Of a stretch of DNA of 10,449 bases, positions 515 through 10,449 are shown piece after piece. The translations under genes were made by a program, and so were the position numbers. Source of the DNA: Arcobacter sp. (GTDB taxonomy: Bacteria; Campylobacterota; Campylobacteria; Campylobacterales; Arcobacteraceae); NCBI GenBank assembly GCA_965662175.1, contig CBFIGT010000079.1, forward strand, positions 1-10,449. Direction: 5' to 3'. The number at the start of each line of letters is the position of its first letter. Within the stretch, counting starts at the first letter, position 1. The notes under the pieces were generated by a model. The model made no database searches and had not been told where the DNA came from. It was given only the letters and a program-made list of their open reading frames with translations.

Positions 515-541
515 CAAAAAAGAGAAAAATTCTCTTTTTTG
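515..541 (-). terminator. Intrinsic terminator-like hairpin after the nosL-family gene (possibly bidirectional)
   Basis: Perfect inverted repeat CAAAAAAGAGAA-aaa-TTCTCTTTTTTG (12 bp arms, 3 nt loop) immediately after the stop at 543; a T6 tract follows the GAGAA/TTCTC core on either strand. Confidence 0.7.
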
Positions 542-542
542 A

Positions 543-1253
543 TTATTTGTTTGTTAGATATAATCCGATAGCTTGTAGAGTTTTACCTTTAACATCACCA
601 CAGATTTTTGATGACATTAAATAAGATTTAGCTTGGGCAGTTGTTTCAAATCTTTTATCTGTTTTTGTACAGTTTTCATTATAAAACTTTTCTCCCATTT
701 TTATCATTTTTGCTTGTCTTTTTTCAATCATTGCTTTCTCTTTTTTTATACCATCAGCAACAATTTTTTCAAGTTCTGCAAAAGTTTTTAACTCTCCACC
801 ATTCTCTTTTATAAAAGCTAAAGCTGCCTCTTTTGAGGAAAATGCATATTTACTGACCATACTCATAGTTCCAGGTTTTTTACTTCCAACTACATAATAA
901 GCATCTTTTACATCAATAAACTTTAGTGTAGAGTTATCAACAACTTTCATAGAGCTTAGTTTAGAGTTTTTTATCTCTTTATCTTCAATCATACAATGAA
1001 CTGAACAATACTGTTTTGTTTTTGCACCATCATTTGCAGCATGATTAGTTTTGTAAAACATAGGTAAAGTCATACCACAAATAGGACAAAATGTTTTTTC
1101 ATCACCCTCTTGAAGCAAAGTTGCATCATTTGGATTAACAGCTTGATAATTCATTTTTTGCATCATTTTTGAATGGTCATGCCCCATATGCTCAGATGCA
1201 TATAAATTTATAGAAACTAATAATGCACATACTACTAAAAAAGCTTTTTTCAT
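543..1253 (-). CDS. nosL: Secreted NosL-family protein with N-terminal His/Met-rich segment and C-terminal two-Cys module
   Basis: Sec signal peptide (MKK...NLYA/S), HMGHDHSKMMQKM, CPICGM, YCSVHC, FIDVKDAYYVVGS..PGTM and AFSSKEAALAFIKENGG (NosL/MerB-like pattern). AAGGA RBS. Symbol denotes family only; no nosZ nearby. Confidence 0.8.
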   Translation of the reverse strand: MKKAFLVVCALLVSINLYASEHMGHDHSKMMQKMNYQAVNPNDATLLQEGDEKTFCPICGMTLPMFYKTNHAANDGAKTKQYCSVHCMIEDKEIKNSKLSSMKVVDNSTLKFIDVKDAYYVVGSKKPGTMSMVSKYAFSSKEAALAFIKENGGELKTFAELEKIVADGIKKEKAMIEKRQAKMIKMGEKFYNENCTKTDKRFETTAQAKSYLMSSKICGDVKGKTLQAIGLYLTNK

Positions 1254-1290
1254 TGTTTTCCTTTTTTTCTTTTATTTTATAAAATATTTG

Positions 1291-3528
1291 TTAATTATCT
1301 GTTAAGTTACCATTTACTGAAAATGTTATTTTAAATAGGGCTCCATAATATTTTTTACCCTTATACTCAAACTCTTTATTTGAAACCTCAAGTAATCCAC
1401 CATGACGCTCTCTAATAATCTTATCAGCCATAGAAAGACCTAATCCTGTACCTTGGGATTGATGTTTGGTTGTAAAATATGGCTCAAATATTTTATTTAT
1501 AATATCTTCACTAATTCCTAATCCACTATCTAAAATATCAATTTCAATACTCTCTTTGCTGATTAGTTTTGTGCTAACAAAAAGTAATCTATCTGATTCA
1601 TTTTTGATATTAGTTTTTAAAACATCTTTGGTATTATTAAATATATTTATAAAAGCTTCTGCTAGCTCATTTTTATTAGCAAATATTTCTAAATCATCTT
1701 TTAAATCTATTATTTCATTTATAAAGTTATTATGTAAAGAAAAATGAACTAAGCTTAATGCATTTTCTAATACAGATCTTATGCTAATCTCTTTATTGCT
1801 TTTTTCACCTTTAATAAAGTTTCTAAAATTATCTATAGTACTTGATAAATATTTAGCTTGCTTTAAAACACTCTCTTCACAAATATCAATATCCTCTTTT
1901 TTGACACCAAATAAATCAGATTTTAGTTTTAATCCACTCATATTAGTTGTTATTACGCTTAAAGGTTGTCTCCATTGGTGAGCAATATTTCCTATCATCT
2001 CTCCCATTGATGCTAACTTAGTCTGCTCTTCCATAATCTTTAAATTTGAAATATCTTTTATATTTAAAAGAATAGTTTTTTTATCAGGTAGCAATGATGC
2101 TGATATATTAACAGTAATTTTTTTAGCACTTTTTGTAAGACAAAATTTTTCAATATTGCTAGAGTGACCGTGAGTTATGGCATCATTTATTAATTTTTTT
2201 ATCTTATTAGCATCTTCTGGGACTGATAAATCACTACAATACTTGTCAATTAAATCATCCTCTTCATACTCAAGCATTTCAACAAATGCTTTGTTATATT
2301 TTAAAAATTTTGTATCTAAATCCACAATTGCAATACTGTCATGACTATAATTAAAAATTGTTTCAAACTCCTCTTTTTGTTTTAATAGTTTATCTTGAAG
2401 TTTTTGTTTTTCACTTATATCTCTAAATGAACAATAAATAAACTCATTATCTTCAATCAAAACTCTTACAATACTAACTGTAACATCTATCAAAGAGTTA
2501 TCTTTTCTTCTATATTTTGTATCAAAATATAATGGAGTAAAACTTACATTTTTTATATTTTCATCAATTTGTTCTTTGCTATGTATAGCTTCAAAATTAG
2601 AAACATGTAGTTTTAATACCTCTTCATCACTATAGGCTAAACTATTTTTAAATAATTTACTATACTCAATAACATAACCCTCTAAATTTACAATAAAAAT
2701 AGCCTCAGATGAGCTTTCCATAAATATTTTATATTTAGTTCTCTCTTTTTCAAGCTCTTCTTGATATTTTTTTATTTTAGTTAAATCTTTACCAATTCCT
2801 AAAACTCCAAAAATATTTTTTTCTTTATCTAATATTTTTACTTTTGTGGTATTTAAAAACTCTTTATGTCCATCACTTGCAAACTCAAGCTCTTCAAAAT
2901 TTGATAAGGGTCTATTGCTATGCATAGCTAAATTATCATTCTCTTTAAAAAAATCAGCTAATTTTTTATCTACAAAATCATAATCAGTTTTACCAACTAT
3001 CTCTTCTCTTTTTTCACCATACAAATCTTCAAATCTTTTATTACAAGTAATAAACCTACCATCTTTATCTTTTATCCATAAAAGGTCAGGTATATTATGA
3101 ATAATTGTCTCTAATTTACTTTTTTCAAGCTCTAACTCTTTTTTTTGTTTATTTAATTTTTCTTCGTTAAGCTTCTCATTTGTAATATCCCTTGAAGATG
3201 CATATATAAACTTTTCACCATCTATTACTAGAGTTTTTGCATTTATTCTAACATCAATTATTGTTCCATCTTTTTTGATATGTTTTGTTTCAAAAATTTC
3301 ATCAATATGTGTGGGACTTGCAATAAAAGATTCAATAATATCTAGTATCTCATCTTTTTGAAATTTAATATCAAAATCTTTTACATTTAGATTTTTCATA
3401 TCACTATTTGAAAAGCCAAGCATTTTTGCAAAAGATTTACTATATTCAACAACATAGCCATCTTTATTTACAACATGAATTCCATCTGAGACTAAATCTA
3501 ATAAAATTTTGTATTTTGTATTATTCAT
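1291..3528 (-). CDS. Cytoplasmic multi-PAS (4 PAS/PAC) sensor histidine kinase
   Basis: Four PAS-like units (e.g. IPDLLWIKDKDGRFITCNKRFE, EIVGKTDYDF, FETKHIKKDG); H-box GEMIGNIAHQWRQPL; N-box FINIFNN; G1 DSGLGI; F-box IFEPYFTTK; G2 GTGLGL. No hydrophobic TM segment. Confidence 0.93.
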   Translation of the reverse strand: MNNTKYKILLDLVSDGIHVVNKDGYVVEYSKSFAKMLGFSNSDMKNLNVKDFDIKFQKDEILDIIESFIASPTHIDEIFETKHIKKDGTIIDVRINAKTLVIDGEKFIYASSRDITNEKLNEEKLNKQKKELELEKSKLETIIHNIPDLLWIKDKDGRFITCNKRFEDLYGEKREEIVGKTDYDFVDKKLADFFKENDNLAMHSNRPLSNFEELEFASDGHKEFLNTTKVKILDKEKNIFGVLGIGKDLTKIKKYQEELEKERTKYKIFMESSSEAIFIVNLEGYVIEYSKLFKNSLAYSDEEVLKLHVSNFEAIHSKEQIDENIKNVSFTPLYFDTKYRRKDNSLIDVTVSIVRVLIEDNEFIYCSFRDISEKQKLQDKLLKQKEEFETIFNYSHDSIAIVDLDTKFLKYNKAFVEMLEYEEDDLIDKYCSDLSVPEDANKIKKLINDAITHGHSSNIEKFCLTKSAKKITVNISASLLPDKKTILLNIKDISNLKIMEEQTKLASMGEMIGNIAHQWRQPLSVITTNMSGLKLKSDLFGVKKEDIDICEESVLKQAKYLSSTIDNFRNFIKGEKSNKEISIRSVLENALSLVHFSLHNNFINEIIDLKDDLEIFANKNELAEAFINIFNNTKDVLKTNIKNESDRLLFVSTKLISKESIEIDILDSGLGISEDIINKIFEPYFTTKHQSQGTGLGLSMADKIIRERHGGLLEVSNKEFEYKGKKYYGALFKITFSVNGNLTDN
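2655..3473. repeat. Diverged internal repeat of PAS1 and PAS3 coding segments (2655-2693 vs 3435-3473)
   Basis: ATTTACTATACTCAATAACATAACCCTCTAAATTTACAA vs ATTTACTATATTCAACAACATAGCCATCTTTATTTACAA: 33/39 identical by manual count, offset 780 nt (260 codons, in frame). Confidence 0.7.
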
Positions 3529-3543
3529 AATTTTTCTTAATAT

Positions 3544-4254
3544 TTAAATATGACAACTAAGAATTGATTTATTTGGGTCAGTTAAATATTCATAACCACT
3601 ATGCATAACATAGATTCCAAATAAAATCACCAAAATAGATGCTATTGTAATAAATAGATTTCTTAAACTTGTTTGCTTAAAAATTCCTACAAAAAAACCT
3701 AGTGAAAACATAGCTGGAATTGTACTTAGACCAAAAATTAGCATTACAAAAGCTCCCCAAAAAGCACTTCCTGTACTAGCTGCTGTTATTGCAAATACAT
3801 AAACAAATCCACAAGGAAGAAGTCCATTTAACATACCAAGCAAATAAAAACTTGTAAGGGTATTAGAGCCAATTAAACTTCTAAAACTATCTTGATAAAG
3901 TTTTGATTTTGAAACAGAGTGCTCTATATTTGTAAGAAACTTTAGTTTACCACTTAATGAAATTCCAACTATTATCATCAAAAAACCAGTTGTTAAAAGC
4001 ATTATTCCGCTAGTTGTATTATCAAAAGTTACAACACCACCAACAAAACCAAAAATAGCACCTAAAAGAGTATAAGTACTTACCCTACCAATTGAGTATA
4101 AAAAGTGAGAAAGGGATTGTTTTAATTTACTAAATTTATTATCTATTTTAGTACTTGAATATGCTACAACTATACCACCACACATCCCAATACAGTGACC
4201 AAAAGAGCCTAAAAATGCAATAGTTATAATACTTATTATACTTATATTTTCCAT
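3544..4254 (-). CDS. DsbD_2-like (CcdA/UreH-related; usually annotated sulfite exporter TauE/SafE family) membrane protein
   Basis: About 6 hydrophobic segments with family motifs GSFGHCIGMCGG, GRVSTYTLLGA, GMLNGLLPCGFVY and MLIFGLSTIP. Start overlaps the upstream stop (TAATG). Confidence 0.88.
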   Translation of the reverse strand: MENISIISIITIAFLGSFGHCIGMCGGIVVAYSSTKIDNKFSKLKQSLSHFLYSIGRVSTYTLLGAIFGFVGGVVTFDNTTSGIMLLTTGFLMIIVGISLSGKLKFLTNIEHSVSKSKLYQDSFRSLIGSNTLTSFYLLGMLNGLLPCGFVYVFAITAASTGSAFWGAFVMLIFGLSTIPAMFSLGFFVGIFKQTSLRNLFITIASILVILFGIYVMHSGYEYLTDPNKSILSCHI

Positions 4255-4757
4255 TAATTACCTAACAGTTTTTTTCGTATAAGTGGATTTGTAAGATTTT
4301 CACCCCTATACATTCTAAGAAGCACCTCATCAAACTCAATCATATTATCTTTTTTACTTTCATAAGCTGCAAAACCATATCCCATCTCTGTTTGTGAATC
4401 AATAGTATACCACGCTTTTCTAGCATCTATATATTTTAAACTATCCCTTGAAAAAACCCAAACTATAGCTTCATCTTGAAATTTTATATTTTTAAACCAA
4501 AGGGCAAAACATCCCATATCATCAAAAAACCAAGTTTTTCCATCAGGTGAAACAGCTTGCACTGAGTCCTCTTCTTTAGTAAGAGTCATACCACATTGTG
4601 TATCTTGGAAATGATTTAACTCTATGTTTACTGGTTTATGTTCATGGTTACCCTCATGTATTACAATCATCTTTTTTTGGTTTGACATTGATAAAAAGAT
4701 AGCTACTATTATTAAAATTAATATAAATATGGTTAGAAGTGGTAGAAGTTTTTTCAT
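4254..4757 (-). CDS. Membrane-anchored NosL-like protein
   Basis: N-terminal hydrophobic anchor without lipobox Cys, HEGNHEH, DTQCGM, GKTWFFDDMGC, YIDARKAWY and TEMGYGFAAY (cf. NosL CGM / FDDxGC / TPMGxG). Confidence 0.72.
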   Translation of the reverse strand: MKKLLPLLTIFILILIIVAIFLSMSNQKKMIVIHEGNHEHKPVNIELNHFQDTQCGMTLTKEEDSVQAVSPDGKTWFFDDMGCFALWFKNIKFQDEAIVWVFSRDSLKYIDARKAWYTIDSQTEMGYGFAAYESKKDNMIEFDEVLLRMYRGENLTNPLIRKKLLGN

Positions 4758-4904
4758 AAAATATAGACCTGAATTTTTTTTTAATGATATATAAACTATC
4801 TTAACAATAAGGTTAAAATATTACAAATTTAAATGATGTTAAAGTTTTTATTCATTAATATATTAGAAAATTTTATATTTAAAATTAAAAATTAAGGGTA
4901 ATTT
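4758..4904. promoter_or_regulatory. Divergent promoter region for both arms, containing palindrome TTAAC-N6-GTTAA (4801-4816)
   Basis: 147-bp intergenic region between head-to-head genes. Minus-strand TATCAT -10 candidate at 4784-4789; AAGGG RBS at 4894-4898 before the TTG at 4905; recurring TTAA words. Confidence 0.6.
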
Positions 4905-5630
4905 TTGTCAAGTTTAAAAAAAATTCTATTGATTCTTCCGTTTTTGTTTTTTCTAAACTCATTTGCAAATGATTTAGAAAAAAACTCCCAATTAAGTAAG
5001 GCAATAAAAGAGAAAAAAATCTATCCAAAAGGTAAAAAGATTTTTGAAAAGCTTTGTAATCAAGAGTTATCACTAAATGAGTATAAAACATTATATGAAT
5101 TAAAAGAGTCAATTTTAAAGAAAAATTTATGTAAAAAAATGAGTGAAAAAAATCTTGATATTTTAGCAATATATCTTTGGGATGTAAAAAGAGTTGAAAG
5201 TAATAATATTACAATAGTAGAAGAGATAATAGTTGATGAAAAAGAGAGATGTCCTGTTTGTGCTATGTTTGTAGCAAAATATCCAAGATGGGCAGCTCAG
5301 GTTTTTATGGAAAATCATAAATTCTCTTTTGATGGTGTAAAAGATTTAATGAAATTTTATTTTGAACCTAAAGCTTGGGGAAACTATCCTTTTGAAACAA
5401 AAGATATAAAAAAGATTTTAGTGACTGATTATTATACCCAAGAAGCAATTGATGGCTTTAAAGCATATTATGTTATAAGAAGCGATGTTTATGGACCTAT
5501 GGGACATGAGTTAATACCCTTTGAATTATTAGAGGATGCTCAAACATTCAAAAAAGACCATAATGCAAAAGAGATTATAAGATTTGAAGAGATAACAAAA
5601 GAGGGTGTTTATAAATTAGATGAATTATAA
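4905..5630 (+). CDS. nosL: Secreted NosL-family protein with N-terminal two-Cys module
   Basis: TTG start with AAGGG RBS; Sec signal peptide (…LNSFA/ND); CPVCAMFVAKYPRW, FDGVKDLMKF, VTDYYT..AIDG..AYYV..SDVYGPMGHELIPF....A..F...H. Symbol denotes family only. Confidence 0.85.
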   Translation: MSSLKKILLILPFLFFLNSFANDLEKNSQLSKAIKEKKIYPKGKKIFEKLCNQELSLNEYKTLYELKESILKKNLCKKMSEKNLDILAIYLWDVKRVESNNITIVEEIIVDEKERCPVCAMFVAKYPRWAAQVFMENHKFSFDGVKDLMKFYFEPKAWGNYPFETKDIKKILVTDYYTQEAIDGFKAYYVIRSDVYGPMGHELIPFELLEDAQTFKKDHNAKEIIRFEEITKEGVYKLDEL

Positions 5631-5940
5631 AAGTAAAATCTATTTTGGAACAATAATTAGTTTAATGACACTACTTTTTTTATTAATTCTTTTTTTATTT
5701 GCTTTTAAGACACTTAATAAAAGTCAAATTTCTGATAAAAATATATTAGTTACTAATGTATCACTTCCTGATTTAGCTATCTCTACAGAGGCTATGTATA
5801 TAAGACATAGGTCTTTAGCTGATATATTTTCTTACTTTAAAGAGTCACCATCTCTTTTGGAGTATTTTCCCTCAACTTTTGTATATCATTATCCAAAAAA
5901 TATAAATAACTACCCATCAAAGATTTTACATGAAAAATAA
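5620..5940 (+). CDS. Small single-TM hypothetical protein
   Basis: Overlaps both neighbours by 11 nt and fills the operon gap; N-terminal TM helix followed by LPDLAISTEAMYIRHRSL. Confidence 0.8.
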   Translation: MNYKSKIYFGTIISLMTLLFLLILFLFAFKTLNKSQISDKNILVTNVSLPDLAISTEAMYIRHRSLADIFSYFKESPSLLEYFPSTFVYHYPKNINNYPSKILHEK

Positions 5941-7117
5941 GATTAATCTATATTTAGTGGAGTATGCTTTAAATGCCCTCTTTAGACAAAAAGCAAAAAA
6001 TATTTTTATCTTAATAATATTTACACTTTTGATTTTTTTACTTAGTTCTATTTTTTTTATCTCAAAATCAATTCAAGAAGAGCTTAATACTACCCTTAAC
6101 TCACTACCTGATATTACAGTTCAAAAGTTAAAAACAGGAAGACATCATAATATTGATGTAGCACTTGTAGATGAAATATTAGAGATTCCTGGGATTAAAA
6201 GTGCTGTTTCTAGAGTTTGGGGATATTACTATTTTGAAAATGCAGCTGTTAATTTTTCTGTTGTTGGAATTGATGAGTTTGAGGAGCAGTATAAAGAGAG
6301 TTTAAATAAAATTACAAAAAACCATGATTTTTCAAAAGCTTTGGAAAATGACTCTATGATTGTGGGAAATGGTGTGAAAAAGATTTTAGAAGAGAACTAT
6401 TATAAAAACTATTTTAACTTTATAAAAGGGGATGGTGTTTTCAAAAAAGTTAATATTTTAGGTACTTTTAAAGACTCCACAAACTTAGAATCAAATGATT
6501 TAATACTTTTACCAAAAGAGTTAGCCCAAGAGATATTTTTAATGGATACAAATGAAGCAACTGATATTGTAATTAGAGTTTCAAATCCTATTGAAGTGGC
6601 AACCATTGCAGCAAAAATAAAACTTATATATCCTGATTGTAGAGTAATTACTAAACAAGATTTAGCTATCTCTTATCAAAATATATTTGATTATAAAAGT
6701 GGTATTTTTTTAGTTTTCTTTGTCATCTCTATTTTTACTTTTTTTATAATTGTATTTGATAGAATTAGTGGTTTAAGCAGTGAAGAGAAAAAGGAAATTG
6801 GTATTTTAAAAGCTATTGGTTGGAGAGTTGAGGATGTATTAAAAGAGAAGTTTTATGAAGCCTTTATTATCTCTTTTACAGCTTATATCTTAGGTATTAT
6901 TTTAGCTTTAATTTTTGTATATATTTTACAAGCTCCACTTCTAAGTAATATTTTTAGTGGTTACTCAGTTTTAAAACCTAGTTTTGATTTACCCTTTGTT
7001 TTAGATATAAATAGCTTAGTTTTAATCTTTTTATTATCAGTACCTATTTATATAGCAGCTATAATAATTCCATCTTGGAGAAACTCTACTATTGAAACAG
7101 ATAAGGTTATAAGATGA
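5930..7117 (+). CDS. ABC transporter permease, FtsX/LolE/MacB (type VII) family
   Basis: One N-terminal TM, ~210-aa soluble extracytoplasmic domain, three C-terminal TMs, and the EEKKEIGILKAIGW FtsX-type motif. Confidence 0.92.
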   Translation: MKNKINLYLVEYALNALFRQKAKNIFILIIFTLLIFLLSSIFFISKSIQEELNTTLNSLPDITVQKLKTGRHHNIDVALVDEILEIPGIKSAVSRVWGYYYFENAAVNFSVVGIDEFEEQYKESLNKITKNHDFSKALENDSMIVGNGVKKILEENYYKNYFNFIKGDGVFKKVNILGTFKDSTNLESNDLILLPKELAQEIFLMDTNEATDIVIRVSNPIEVATIAAKIKLIYPDCRVITKQDLAISYQNIFDYKSGIFLVFFVISIFTFFIIVFDRISGLSSEEKKEIGILKAIGWRVEDVLKEKFYEAFIISFTAYILGIILALIFVYILQAPLLSNIFSGYSVLKPSFDLPFVLDINSLVLIFLLSVPIYIAAIIIPSWRNSTIETDKVIR

Positions 7118-7785
7118 TTGAGTTAAAAAATCTAACAAAAATATATGAAATAAATAAAAATAATAAAACAGTAGCTATAAACAGTATAAATTTAAATATC
7201 AATAGAGGTGAATTAGTTGTTTTAAAAGGTGCAAGTGGAAGCGGTAAAAGTACGATTTTATCCTTAATTGCAGGTTTAAGTAAGCCAAGTTCTGGTGAGG
7301 TAATTGTTGATAATAGACAAATATCAAAATTTCCTGATAACTTTGCATCTGATTTTAGGCAAGAGTATATAGGATTTATTTTTCAAAAATATAATCTTAT
7401 TCCTAATTTATCTGTTCAAGATAATATTTTACTTCCTTTAGTTCCTAAAAATCTTGATACAAAAGAGGCAAAAAAACTTTTAGAAAAAGTGATGAGTGAT
7501 TTTAAAATTGAGCATAAAAAAAGTGAAATAGTAAAAAATCTCTCAGGTGGTGAGCAACAAAGAGTTGCAATAGCTAGAAGTCAAATAAATAATCCAAAAA
7601 TAGTAATTGCAGATGAGCCAACGGCAAATTTAGATAAAGAGTTATCAGAGCATTTTATCTCAATTTTAAAAGAGTTAAAAAGTCAAGGAAAAACTATAAT
7701 AGTAGCTAGTCATGACCCTTTATTTTTTGATTTGGATTTTGTTGATAAGATGATTGAAGTTTCAAATGGAAAGATAATTTTATGA
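7114..7785 (+). CDS. ABC transporter ATP-binding protein, LolD/MacB-like
   Basis: Walker A GASGSGKS, Q-loop GFIFQKYNL, signature LSGGEQQRV, Walker B/D-loop IADEPTANLD, H-loop ASHD. ATGA overlap with the permease gene. Confidence 0.95.
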   Translation: MIELKNLTKIYEINKNNKTVAINSINLNINRGELVVLKGASGSGKSTILSLIAGLSKPSSGEVIVDNRQISKFPDNFASDFRQEYIGFIFQKYNLIPNLSVQDNILLPLVPKNLDTKEAKKLLEKVMSDFKIEHKKSEIVKNLSGGEQQRVAIARSQINNPKIVIADEPTANLDKELSEHFISILKELKSQGKTIIVASHDPLFFDLDFVDKMIEVSNGKIIL

Positions 7786-8744
7786 TTTTATCTCCTGAAG
7801 TTTTAACAATATTAATACTTGATGCACTTTTATCAATTTTTTCATTTATAGCTCTATTTATCTCTTTAAAAATTGTTTTTAAATGGGATTTTAATTCCAC
7901 TTCAAAATCCCAATACAATCTAGAAAAACAGAGTTTTTTAGGTGCAACTATTATTAAATATACCCTTTATCTAAAAATATTACTTTTTGTTTTTTTTATA
8001 TTTACCTTAGACAAACTATCAAATGTAATTCATGGTGCCATGTGTGCTGCTGGAGTTGTTGATGCAACATCTTATGGAATATATCTTCTTTTATTTAAAA
8101 TCTTAAATATCTATTTATTTGGTTTTTGGTTAGTTCTTCATAATCATGATTTAAAACATGAAAAACTTCCCTTTACAAAACAGAAGTTTATTTTCTTTTT
8201 AGTTATTTTTGCTTTATTTATGATAGAAACTATTTTAGAAATTACAATGTTTGCTTCAATTGATATTGATAAATTAGTAAGTTGTTGTGGGACTTTATAC
8301 TCAAGTTCTCAAGACTCTTATGTTTCATCACTGTTTAAAATGAATCAAAACTATTTTTTGATGGCTTTTTATGTGGTTTTTATTTTACTTTTAATTTTTA
8401 AATATTTAAAAAACTCCTATTTATATACTATTTTTAATCTACTATTTTTAGTTTTAGCAATTATTACTTTGATACTATTTTTCTCAACTTATATTTATGA
8501 GCTTCCAACACATAACTGTCCTTTTTGTATATTACAAAAAGAGTATGATTATATTGGATATTTAATCTATATACTTCTTTTTTCAGGTACATTTTTTGGT
8601 TTTTGTGCTGGAATTTATGATATTTATTTTAAGCAAAAAGCTAAACTATTTTTTAATTATTCAATTATTTTAAATAGTTTATATTTGCTTTTAGTGAGCT
8701 ATTTTGTACTTAGTTATTATATTAGATTTGGAGTATTTTTATAA
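7782..8744 (+). CDS. Polytopic (~8 TM) membrane protein of unknown function with Cys/His/Met loop motifs
   Basis: ATGA overlap with the ATPase gene; about 8 hydrophobic segments; HGAMC (84-88), SCCG (C168/C169), THNCPFC (H244, C246, C249). Confidence 0.85.
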   Translation: MILSPEVLTILILDALLSIFSFIALFISLKIVFKWDFNSTSKSQYNLEKQSFLGATIIKYTLYLKILLFVFFIFTLDKLSNVIHGAMCAAGVVDATSYGIYLLLFKILNIYLFGFWLVLHNHDLKHEKLPFTKQKFIFFLVIFALFMIETILEITMFASIDIDKLVSCCGTLYSSSQDSYVSSLFKMNQNYFLMAFYVVFILLLIFKYLKNSYLYTIFNLLFLVLAIITLILFFSTYIYELPTHNCPFCILQKEYDYIGYLIYILLFSGTFFGFCAGIYDIYFKQKAKLFFNYSIILNSLYLLLVSYFVLSYYIRFGVFL

Positions 8745-8749
8745 AAAAT

Positions 8750-8776
8750 GATTAAAAAGTTTAAAACTTTTTAATC
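8750..8776. terminator. Bidirectional terminator-like hairpin between the convergent membrane-protein gene and ppk2
   Basis: GATTAAAAAGTTT-A-AAACTTTTTAATC: perfect 13-bp inverted repeat (12-bp stem with 3-nt loop as RNA), overlapping the ppk2 stop codon. AT-rich, so thermodynamically weak. Confidence 0.6.
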
Positions 8777-9670
8777 TAATTTTAGACCCCAAATCTTTGC
8801 ATTTTCTTTCATATTCTCTAACTCTTTTTCGCTAGAAATTACAATCTCAGGGTCAACATCAAAGTTAACTCTTTCATCTTTCCCCTCATAATCAACTTTA
8901 TTTAAAATAGTTTTTATTGCATTATATCTAGCAATAAACTTATCATCACTTCTAATAATAGTCCAAGGAGATTTTTCTGTATTTGTTTCTTTTAACATTC
9001 TATATTTTTTTATTGTAAACTCATTCCATCTCTCTTGCATTTGAAGGTCAATTTCACTTAGTTTCCACTGTTTTAAAGGATTCTCTTCTCTCTCTTCAAA
9101 ACGTCTTGCTTGTTCATCTTTAGTTACTGAAAAATAGATTTTTAAGAAATGTATTCCATGCTCTATTAAATCCTCTTCAAATCTTGTAACAGTTTTCATA
9201 AAAGTCTCATATTGCTCTTCTGTACAAAATCCAAAAACAGGTTCTACCATAGCTCTATTGTACCAAGACCTATCAAGTATAACTACCTCTCCACCCTTTG
9301 GAAAGTGTTGAATATATCGTTGAAAATACCATTGTGTTCTTTCAACCTCAGATGGCTTACCAAGGGCAACTACTCTATAATGTTTTTCATTCATATATCT
9401 AGTAATTCTTCGAATAGCTCCACCTTTTCCTGAAGCATCCCTACCCTCAACTAAAATAATCATCTTCTCATCATTTTTTTCTAAATGCTCTTGAAGCTTT
9501 ATAAGTTCAATTTGAAGTAATCTTAAAGCCTCTTCTTGTGACCTATACTCATATTTTTTGTGAAGCTCTTTTAGAAAACTCTCATCAGCCTTTGTTCCAA
9601 TTTTTTCAACAAATTCCTCAAATCCTAAAATATCTTCAATTTCTCTATCATAAAGTTTATCTATTTTCAT
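8771..9670 (-). CDS. ppk2: Polyphosphate kinase 2 (single-domain)
   Basis: Walker A EGRDASGKGG, VVALGKPS..E..QWYFQRY, Walker B DRSWYNR, lid PLKQWKLSEID, PWTIIRSDDK. GGGGAG RBS. Confidence 0.96.
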   Translation of the reverse strand: MKIDKLYDREIEDILGFEEFVEKIGTKADESFLKELHKKYEYRSQEEALRLLQIELIKLQEHLEKNDEKMIILVEGRDASGKGGAIRRITRYMNEKHYRVVALGKPSEVERTQWYFQRYIQHFPKGGEVVILDRSWYNRAMVEPVFGFCTEEQYETFMKTVTRFEEDLIEHGIHFLKIYFSVTKDEQARRFEEREENPLKQWKLSEIDLQMQERWNEFTIKKYRMLKETNTEKSPWTIIRSDDKFIARYNAIKTILNKVDYEGKDERVNFDVDPEIVISSEKELENMKENAKIWGLKLD

Positions 9671-9758: not shown

Positions 9759-9772
9759 TTGATTTGTGTCAA
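9759..9772. promoter_or_regulatory. Crp/Fnr-family (FNR/Nss-type) binding box
   Basis: TTGAT-TTGT-GTCAA: 9/10 match to TTGAT-N4-ATCAA and exact TTGA-N6-TCAA; centred at -41.5 if TAAACT (9795-9800) is the -10. Confidence 0.75.
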
Positions 9773-9828: not shown

Positions 9829-10158
9829 ATGGAAAAAATAGAAGTATTAGGCTCAACAGTAGATTTTTTTAAATCAATTGAAAATGGCTTAACAACATAT
9901 CAATTTGATACAAGTAAATGTGGACCACCAGATCCAATGGTAAATGCAATGGCAGGATTACAACTATTAGATGAAAATAGTCAACTAATAATGATAAACC
10001 ATAAATCTCCAGGTGGACTTTTCCCAAAAGTTGAAGCTGAGTTTGATTTTATAGAAGATAAAACAGAAGATGGAAAAGCAAAAGTAATTTTTACAAGAAA
10101 ACAAAATGCAATTAATTCTACAGATTTTACTCAAAATACTTGTAGTGGCGGAAAATAG
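9829..10158 (+). CDS. Small cytoplasmic DUF2249/TusA(SirA)-like protein
   Basis: FDTSKCGPPDPMVNAMAGLQLL...LIMINHKSPGGLFPK resembles the DUF2249 pattern (D....PPEP....L..L...L....H.P..L). AAGGT RBS. Confidence 0.7.
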   Translation: MEKIEVLGSTVDFFKSIENGLTTYQFDTSKCGPPDPMVNAMAGLQLLDENSQLIMINHKSPGGLFPKVEAEFDFIEDKTEDGKAKVIFTRKQNAINSTDFTQNTCSGGK

Positions 10159-10164
10159 TTTCAT

Positions 10165-10449
10165 ATGAATATTTCAACTGCCTTTGCACCACCTTTTAAG
10201 CTTATAGCTCCATTTTTTATATTAGCAGCATTTGTTTTTGTAATAAGTATTTCAATGCTTTTTGGTTTTGATGTACAAATTATTCATAATTTAGATAGTG
10301 CTGTATTATCATGGGTTCATTTATTTTTACTTGGCTTTGTAATGATGATAATCTTTGGAGCAATGGCACAGTTAGTTCCTGTAGTTTTAGAAGTTGGTCA
10401 TTTTGCAGTTGATTTGTATTATGCAATATATCCTTTGCTATTTATTGGA
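10165..10449 (+). CDS. Membrane protein, NnrS/heme-copper oxidase subunit I-like, 5' part (runs off the right edge; not in the ORF track)
   Basis: Open frame from ATG 10165 to the window end: MNISTAFAPPFKLIAPFF...SWVHLFLLGFVMMIIFGAMAQLVPVVLE..., with an intramembrane HLxxLGxxxxxxxGxxxQxxP motif; begins 6 nt after the previous stop. Confidence 0.75.
   Translation, partial: MNISTAFAPPFKLIAPFFILAAFVFVISISMLFGFDVQIIHNLDSAVLSWVHLFLLGFVMMIIFGAMAQLVPVVLEVGHFAVDLYYAIYPLLFIG

Follow-up and report, generated by a model that had tools for sequence, protein, structure and literature searches.

The window analyzed here is a whole 10,449-bp contig (C79) of an Arcobacter sp. genome (G000; 2.6 Mb, 94% complete, 27.8% GC). 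Between purH and ppk2 it carries a nine-gene divergent locus, and six or seven of these genes form a conserved core: genes of the NosL-A/C type, a small anchored protein, a permease of the FtsX type, an ATP-binding cassette (ABC) ATPase, and a membrane protein with eight helices (the 8-helix protein). Judging from its conserved residues and its neighbors, this module very probably handles copper. We favor, with modest confidence, the reading of it as a periplasmic Cu(I) relay driven by ATP, which would load or unload its own NosL chaperones and would here supply the cbb3 oxidase in place of the PCuAC-Sco system. More tentatively, it may represent a third bacterial envelope copper route, in which a type VII ABC transporter drives the 8-helix protein to load a NosL subfamily; such a route might replace PCuAC-Sco for cbb3 in most free-living Campylobacterales and be reused in nos and mcc clusters for nitrous oxide (N2O) reductase and the heme-copper sulfite reductase. 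An earlier note on this DNA had suggested an envelope module probably devoted to copper, and both the conserved copper ligands and the linkage to copper-enzyme clusters bear this out.

The core is recognizable by the company its genes keep. In a sample of 201 genomes of the order Campylobacterales, the 8-helix gene was found in 102 and the NosL-A/C subfamily in 102, with both in 101. Because the NosL-A/C profile was derived from module loci, a match of linked copies is built in; the real test comes from unlinked pairs, which lie 370 kb apart in genome G017 and 619 kb apart in G201, and from 19 nosZ genomes that match neither gene. Gene order is kept as well. Among the 65 of the best 80 GTDB loci with at least 3.6 kb upstream, the ATPase was found in 64, the permease in 62, the small protein in 58, and the NosL-A/C gene in 48. 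A further 80 metagenome loci from distant homologs (GC 0.40 to 0.70, many of them short) preserve the order NosL-small protein-permease-ATPase-8-helix protein, with the ATPase in 68, the permease in 44, the small protein in 33, and NosL in 29. Look-alike clusters in the Atlas are mostly from Nitrospirota and Thermodesulfobacteriota (with low recognition), and one homolog is named Anaeromyxobacter. Nearer genomes gave matches to the 8-helix gene in 16 of 41 relatives and in none of seven from the same genus. All eight genes shared with loci L036 and L041 have a nonsynonymous divergence (dN) below the synonymous divergence (dS, near saturation). In a few metagenome-assembled loci (L051, L058, L104, and L115), additional open reading frames (ORFs) break the small protein-permease-ATPase run.

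The copper signature is clearest in the NosL proteins. The S. denitrificans NosL binds Cu(I) through Cys62, Met64, and Met145, which are required for Cu transfer, and Zn through Cys59, Cys88, and Asp92 (PMC8457098, available passages). All three paralogs of the locus keep the Cu set: C59/M61/M130 in NosL-A and C119/M121/M199 in NosL-C, both aligned to the S. denitrificans and PDB NosL sequences, and C55/M57/M125 in NosL-B, which was placed by motif and whose PDB match covers the C-terminal half only. The Zn positions read C/C/C in NosL-A, C/D/D in NosL-C, and D/D/C in NosL-B. The ligand positions C56/C59/M61/C83/C87/M130 of NosL-A are invariant in 24 of 24 aligned rows, and C116/C119/M121/D143/D147/M199 of NosL-C are kept in 59 of 59; in NosL-B, C55 is conserved in 47, M57 in 48, and M125 in 50 of 51 rows, with D80 and C83 at the zinc positions. 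Of the three NosL paralogs reported in the earlier note, two score above the Pfam cutoff and NosL-B below it. NosL-B has an N-terminal membrane anchor (hydropathy 3.31) and is a frequent but optional companion of the module. As read from the sequences, none of the three has a conserved lipoprotein Cys after its N-terminal hydrophobic segment.

NosL-A consists of a NosL domain followed by a C-terminal helical domain of ∼60 amino acids with two Cys, and in NosL-C the two-Cys helical domain comes first and the NosL domain second. Among 58 NosL-C relatives, 41 are long fusions (360 to 380 amino acids) of A, helical domain, and C. One fused relative, modeled with a predicted local distance difference test (pLDDT) score of 92.3, matches the NosL structure 7og7 (Z 16.8, root mean square deviation [rmsd] 2.2, 123 aligned). 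In the window, the shared helical domain lies at 543 to 720 (minus strand) and at about 5007 to 5183 (plus strand) and has two conserved cysteines. In the fusion model it aligns with class I cytochrome c folds (Z 4 to 6) and lacks a CxxCH motif; as a lead only, it may be a small heme-less fold of this kind. NosL domains also occur in other settings. In G017, a NosL-B and DsbD_2 pair (L147:7581-8788) lies far from the core module, where its neighbors are a TonB-dependent receptor and a system for ABC uptake. In G215, a 903-amino-acid membrane protein (L146:6070-8781) fuses 4Fe-4S (Fer4_5), NosL, and DUF4198 domains and is flanked on one side by a TonB-dependent receptor/DsbD_2 pair and on the other by further genes; this region is possibly a metal uptake and reduction system.

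The transporter agrees with the type VII assignment made earlier. Its permease, which gave a weak MacB match, has four hydrophobic segments and a periplasmic domain of ∼210 amino acids (loop 44 to 257), and its ATPase has an intact Walker A, LSGGE signature, Walker B, and H-loop. Scores fall below the curated equivalogs, both for the ATPase (193 to 194 bits against the FtsE/LolD models, below each equivalog cutoff) and for the permease/transporter (lolCE, 47.7 versus 362; MacB, 20.7 versus 966), and the locus has no gene for MacA, TolC, or LolA. By these features the transporter groups with type VII (MacB/LolCDE/FtsEX), yet it appears to be none of LolCDE, MacAB, or FtsEX proper. The 106-amino-acid protein encoded just before it has no significant Pfam match and has relatives in unnamed Atlas clusters; it is likely an accessory subunit.

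The 8-helix protein belongs to no Pfam or NCBIfam family, and 71 members of its family gave no Pfam family beyond chance rows. All 103 aligned rows keep seven of its residues (M87, C88, C168, C169, H244, C246, and C249) unchanged. These are nearly invariant in distant homologs too and fall on three loops that charge bias predicts to be periplasmic, and the protein is a likely metal-handling subunit. An AlphaFold2 model has eight helices (pLDDT 84.9) and no Foldseek match in the PDB at an E value of 0.001; VIA returned only generic four-helix bundles over residues 1 to 165 (best Z 13.8, rmsd 2.4, 126 aligned), with the C-terminal half barely covered. The earlier note had proposed modeling the permease with its partners. 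The predicted complex with the 8-helix protein scored 0.59, against 0.00 for the best of three controls (contact agreement 97%, pLDDT 76 for the partner), in a range that in calibration held just 18 of 157 solved complexes together with both passing mismatches, and it lends weak predicted support to a pairing of the two proteins.

From these parts we propose the following mechanism. Cu(I) arriving in the periplasm would bind to the Cys/Met/His cluster that the 8-helix protein exposes on its outer face. ATP hydrolysis would move the permease, which would work mechanically on the 8-helix protein and would in this way hand Cu(I) to the NosL domains or take it from them; the analogy is with the action of NosFY on NosD and NosL. 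The NosL proteins would bring copper to a client, which would be NosZ or MccA if the module lies in those clusters and otherwise the CuB site of CcoN. The module would serve as an accessory and not an essential route, of importance when copper is scarce, and the DsbD_2-family protein may help to keep thiols reduced without being dedicated to it.

Gene neighborhoods point to copper enzymes as clients. The comparison with nosZ suggested by the earlier note showed that the module is not restricted to nosZ genomes: in the order sample, 66 genomes have both, 36 the module only, 19 nosZ only, and 80 neither. The nos genes lie within 10 kb of the module in 26 of 80 loci (18 of the 36 long ones), and in the close relatives L037 and L038 the 8-helix gene leads directly into nosY-nosL-nosZ. 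MccA, which we identified through PDB 4rkm, is listed as a copper enzyme in the available part of PMC7558416. All 21 genomes with a close MccA homolog carry the module, 20 of them within 13 kb, at the end of the run mccA-fkpA-mccC-mccD-ccsA1. In a quick tree of 107 rows, six of the mcc-linked copies group together as a single clade (SH-aLRT 98). In one genome (G045, L118:137-2607), two insertion-sequence-like ORFs lie inside mccC; mccA has no match in that genome, and the downstream module is intact. Near the distant copies, 64 of 152 unlabeled ORFs were scanned, in 18 of 23 long loci: eight of the 18 loci have a multicopper oxidase, CusA/CzcA, or Sco, five have a TlpA-type thioredoxin, and five have neither. 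In L183, L199, and L227, distant copies lie among genes for nitrogenase-like proteins (NifH, component 1), NMT1-type binding proteins, or cobamide methyltransferases, and NosL is the sole copper gene among those scanned.

The present genome, however, has neither of these enzymes. In this 94% complete genome, searches with tblastn gave no match for NosZ, NosD, NosY, or NosB (the earlier note had described the locus as being without nosZ), and mccA, NirS, and multicopper oxidase also gave no match; ccoN is present. Altogether, 26 of the 102 carriers, G000 included, are without nosZ and mccA, among them the single-contig genomes G008 and G017. The earlier note had named no client. Context now points to NosZ and MccA where these occur; here the cbb3 oxidase is the likely one, because the other clients are excluded and because of the trade-off described next.

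PCuAC (PF04314) was found in 41 of the 201 order genomes, with no match in 160. It occurs together with the module in 13 genomes, against 20.8 expected. In every one of these 13, nosZ or mccA lies within 13 kb of the module, and PCuAC turned up in none of the 26 carriers that lack both enzymes. Overlap of PCuAC with nosZ, used as a control, is near chance (19 versus 17.3 expected). The same pattern appears in 147 genomes of the family, mostly not in the order sample: 93 have the module only, 39 PCuAC only, 11 both, and 4 neither. Shuffling within genera gave 23.4 genomes with both (standard deviation 1.7), and none of 100,000 shuffles reached 11; the genomes are kin and the shuffle keeps relatedness inside genera, hence this figure is not a probability. 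Inside single genera, module and PCuAC counts are 32 versus 5 in g11 with no overlap, 1 versus 7 in g1, 6 versus 1 in g7, 1 versus 1 in g13, 18 versus 4 in g12 with one overlap, and 16 versus 14 in g88 with seven overlaps. Same-genus genomes carry a run of three genes made up of PCuAC, a small gene, and Sco. Contig C43 of G000 has both conserved flanks of this slot with an unrelated 258-amino-acid ORF in between; with both flanks on one contig, the absence there is not an assembly gap, and the slot has been cleanly replaced. The proteins of the window have no match to the PF04314 or PF02630 domain. Since the module is found mostly where PCuAC-Sco is missing, it is likely a second supply route for the oxygen-reducing oxidase. 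In Campylobacter jejuni, a mutant deleted for the PCuAC/Sco operon lost more than half, but not all, of its cbb3 activity (PMC8267372, available text).

Such a route would matter beyond this genome. Free-living Campylobacterales are major N2O sinks and sulfur oxidizers in marine and low-oxygen habitats, and little is known of how copper reaches their cbb3 oxidase, clade II N2O reductase, and MccA; most of the sampled genomes lack a PCuAC match. If our reading is right, a module carried by half of them would fill this gap, type VII ABC transporters would gain a role in metal loading, and NosL would act as a general chaperone. The trade-off also makes the idea directly testable, for natural pairs of same-genus strains differ in the system they carry.

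A number of observations weigh against this reading, besides the kinship of the genomes. No client strictly needs the module: 19 of 85 nosZ genomes do without it, 11 of them also without PCuAC, and six divergent MccA homologs without the module, five of them with PCuAC, keep both copper cysteines. The module stands beside cco genes in none of the labeled loci. The complete genome G215 has both the module and PCuAC-Sco and no match for nosZ or mccA, and four of the 11 family genomes with both systems lack nosZ, the client gene assessed there. Conversely, module and PCuAC are both lacking in 71 of the 201 order genomes. G000 has a second, distant Sco-family gene, and Sco stands beside the module in three distant loci. 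Alignment of the permease shows neither a conserved Cys nor a conserved His site, and this subunit lacks conserved metal ligands. Finally, the clade of mcc-linked copies rests on a quick tree rather than a finished search.

The presumed copper cysteines of MccA were placed on the 4rkm alignment; the idea that MccA homologs without the module lack them proved false, since the six divergent ones keep both. These six (L123 to L128) form a subfamily with 46 to 48% identity to the query and no adjoining mccCD; their MccA gene is followed by one for a protein of ∼690 amino acids that combines rhodanese, six-heme, and cytochrome b parts, with ccsA1 in three of the loci.

How do other explanations compare? 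The module could be an accessory dedicated to maturing NosZ and MccA, the present copy being left over from a nos-linked ancestor. The 66 carriers with nosZ, the runs into nosY-nosL-nosZ in L037 and L038, and the fact that apparently the same cassette was first noted within a nos cluster (PMC4794192, available passages) speak for this. Against it, 26 carriers have neither enzyme, single-contig genomes included; every gene is intact, with dN lower than dS; 32 of 37 genus g11 genomes carry the module, with nosZ in none of the seven g11 genomes sampled, and a leftover would not follow PCuAC loss. We give this explanation a slim chance. It is also unlikely, in our view, that the module is a general system for periplasmic buffering or detoxification, gathering Cu(I) for efflux or storage and serving no specific enzyme. 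CusA/CzcA pumps and multicopper oxidases do adjoin distant copies, multicopper oxidase has no match in G000 or G215, and several chaperone domains would offer buffering capacity; but a location at the end of mcc operons and within nos clusters suits biogenesis, the gene traded off, PCuAC, encodes a delivery chaperone, and Cu sensitivity was not seen in the C. jejuni PCuAC/Sco mutant (PMC8267372, in the part available).

Another candidate is a machine for thiol redox or Cu(II) reduction, as modeled for C. jejuni FetABCDEF, which would keep chaperone and client cysteines reduced, with DsbD_2 as the electron entry. The 8-helix protein has five invariant cysteines, including CC and CxxC, TlpA-type thioredoxins occur in five of the 18 distant loci, Sco, half of the replaced pair, has a thioredoxin fold, and FetA is likewise a Cys protein with eight transmembrane (TM) helices beside an ABC transporter (PMC10783030, available text). 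The invariant Met and His suit metal ligation, however, electron transfer needs no ATPase, and DsbD_2, on which the redox reading in the earlier note largely leaned, is near the module in just seven of 80 loci and also occurs without it; that reading is weakened and seems to us quite improbable. Most improbable of all is another substrate, such as Zn, Fe, or sulfur, for example for the structural Zn of NosL or for the adjacent nitric oxide (NO) reductase. NosL does need Zn (PMC8457098, same passages), the contig end likely runs on into a norCB cluster, and two distant loci lie among nitrogenase-like genes, but copper is the common element of the nos, mcc, Sco, Cus, and oxidase contexts. NO reductase was also considered as a client and found no support: G215 carries the module with only one COX1-family gene and therefore has no NorB, and a query that misses other NorB types matched close NorB relatives in 7 of 201 genomes.

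The copper relay that we favor has parallels among known systems. Like NosDFY-NosL (PDB 7osf to 7osj and 7znq; NosL, 7og7), it combines an ABC transporter with NosL-fold chaperones that have three essential Cu ligands, and the NosDFY transporter is reported to act mechanically on the periplasmic side. The module differs in having no NosD, a permease of the FtsX/LolE type rather than NosY, an added 8-helix Cys protein and small anchored protein, and NosL paralogs in which no lipoprotein Cys is seen; it is found beside a complete nosDFY set and also without nosZ. It would work like NosDFYL without being a member. With PCuAC-Sco (PccA-SenC; C. jejuni cj0908 to cj0911; PMC8267372, as available) it likely shares a job, accessory periplasmic Cu supply to cbb3, and the two distributions are largely complementary; the two have no sequence or fold kinship, and PCuAC-Sco uses neither an ATPase nor a polytopic Cys protein. 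C. jejuni FetABCDEF likewise has an 8-TM Cys membrane protein beside an ABC permease and ATPase whose substrate is not known, and supports periplasmic metal handling; in contrast, it is iron-linked and has FetMP, two permeases, two thioredoxins, and a FetA with DUF2318 and YHS domains (PMC10783030, available text). The 8-helix family has no DUF2318 or YHS match, the locus has one permease, and the window has no fetMP, so the module appears distinct from FetABCDEF.

The module has apparently been noted before. The nos cluster of Sulfurospirillum cavolei, published in 2016, has five genes inserted between nosL and nosY, comprising a hypothetical gene, an ABC permease, an ATPase, and two more hypothetical genes; in its available passages the paper only lists the insertion and mentions no function, family description, or copies outside nos clusters (PMC4794192). 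The same order is found in the Sulfurospirillaceae loci L061 and L079 and in L121, and the insertion appears to be the same cassette, matched by gene order and not by sequence. In Campylobacterales mcc clusters, the FtsX-type module occupies the slot where the Shewanella sir cluster has nosDFY-type genes. In Wolinella, MccL likewise represents a NosL plus ABC system after mccCD. For the Shewanella sir (MccA-type sulfite reductase) cluster, the gene table of PMC5955497 places nosL and nosY next, at the matching place after sirCD/mccCD. No functional study of the module was found in the literature searched, a scope that leaves out subscription papers and supplements; the available text of PMC6976685 has no passage on copper or nosL, and a preprint on NosPQ, in its available part, deals with other proteins.

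The earlier note had treated all nine genes as one self-contained machine, and this did not survive comparison. The four-PAS histidine kinase is missing at the purH position in the closest loci (L036, L037, L041, and L044), which are otherwise laid out alike, and the DNA match between the window and L036 is interrupted across it; the kinase is therefore likely a later, lineage-specific insertion and a passenger. It is not a misassembly, since contigs of run X1, possibly the source sample, span both of its borders (324 to 1467 and 3421 to 4188). As a cognate regulator it was rejected: the locus has no response regulator, relatives lack the kinase here, and the genome has many PAS-kinase paralogs, although it may have such a role in this strain alone. 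The DsbD_2-family protein, in which C21, C25, and C148 are invariant in 12 of 12 rows, is encoded in 144 of the 201 order genomes and near the module in only seven of the best 80 GTDB loci. In five same-genus genomes, purH, other genes, DsbD_2, and purL follow one another, and the module is lacking in all five. Being widespread and kept at purH without the module, DsbD_2 is an older resident of the purH-purL interval and not a dedicated subunit. The stretch between purH and DsbD_2 varies in the genus, with ammonium-transporter-like and signaling genes in L238 to L242 and NosL-A plus the PAS kinase in G000; in G005, DsbD_2 reads as two pieces.

The layout of the locus is as the earlier note described it, with head-to-head arms around a 147-bp gap, each ending in a perfect hairpin (Table 1). 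That description holds, but its title omits the largest gene, the PAS kinase, and the 106-amino-acid protein. Spacing is tight in both arms, at 37, 15, and −1 bp in the minus arm and −11, −11, −4, and −4 bp in the plus arm. The left hairpin is likely the intrinsic terminator of its arm, and the right one, which overlaps the ppk2 stop codon and is thus shared with the convergent gene, likely a bidirectional terminator common to the plus arm and ppk2. A terminator scan of the window gave 2 sites versus 2.4 in shuffles and included only the left hairpin of the two; a promoter scan was likewise at chance level (75 versus 70.4). A box at 4829 to 4842, one mismatch from the NssR-like consensus, was given no weight: it recurs in L036 and not in the other seven aligned regions, and such sites occur at 0.115 per kb. 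Searches against Rfam and a comparison with plasmids gave no match.

Table 1. Features of the divergent locus and its flanks (positions in the window)
Feature	Coordinates	Strand	Description
purH	start near 429	minus	flank of the nine-ORF locus
Left hairpin	515-541		perfect 12-bp stem just past the NosL-A stop; z −4.56 on minus strand, 0/200 shuffles
NosL-A	543-1253	minus	236 amino acids; Pfam NosL 60.6 bits; signal-peptide-like N terminus (by eye)
Four-PAS histidine kinase	1291-3528	minus	745 amino acids; His box at residue 517; GC 24.9%; without TM helix
DsbD_2-family protein	3544-4254	minus	236 amino acids, 6 TM helices; GHCxGMCG, LPCG; Pfam PF13386 172.7 bits
NosL-B	4254-4757	minus	167 amino acids; Pfam NosL 20.7 bits, cutoff of 24 not reached
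Divergent putative promoter region	4758-4904		147 bp, AT-rich; TTAAC/GTTAA-type repeats
NosL-C	4905-5630	plus	241 amino acids; Pfam NosL 104.4 bits
Small anchored protein	5620-5940	plus	106 amino acids, one TM helix; always directly 5' of permease
FtsX/LolE/MacB-type (type VII) ABC permease	5930-7117	plus	395 amino acids; FtsX 56.7 bits
LolD/FtsE-type ABC ATPase	7114-7785	plus	223 amino acids; ABC_tran 125.4 bits
8-helix protein	7782-8744	plus	320 amino acids, 8 TM helices
Right hairpin	8750-8776		perfect 12-bp AT-rich stem overlapping ppk2 stop codon; z −3.46, plus strand
ppk2	8771-9670	minus	other flank; convergent with plus arm

Beyond ppk2, the window ends in a DUF2249 gene and a cut membrane gene (9829 to 10449) that match residues 1 to 95 of an L044 protein, of which residues 125 to 415 match the start of contig C129 (L148). 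On C129, and then on C10, follow a DUF59 gene, a COX3-like gene, Rrf2, norC, norB, and a norD-like gene, in the order seen in L044. The module likely lies ∼1 kb from an NO-reductase island (norCB), in a genome with no match for nosZ or nirS. Upstream of the DUF2249 gene, a TTGA-N6-TCAA palindrome at 9759 to 9772, the sole exact one in the window, is one mismatch from the FNR box and is possibly an NO-responsive Crp/Fnr site.

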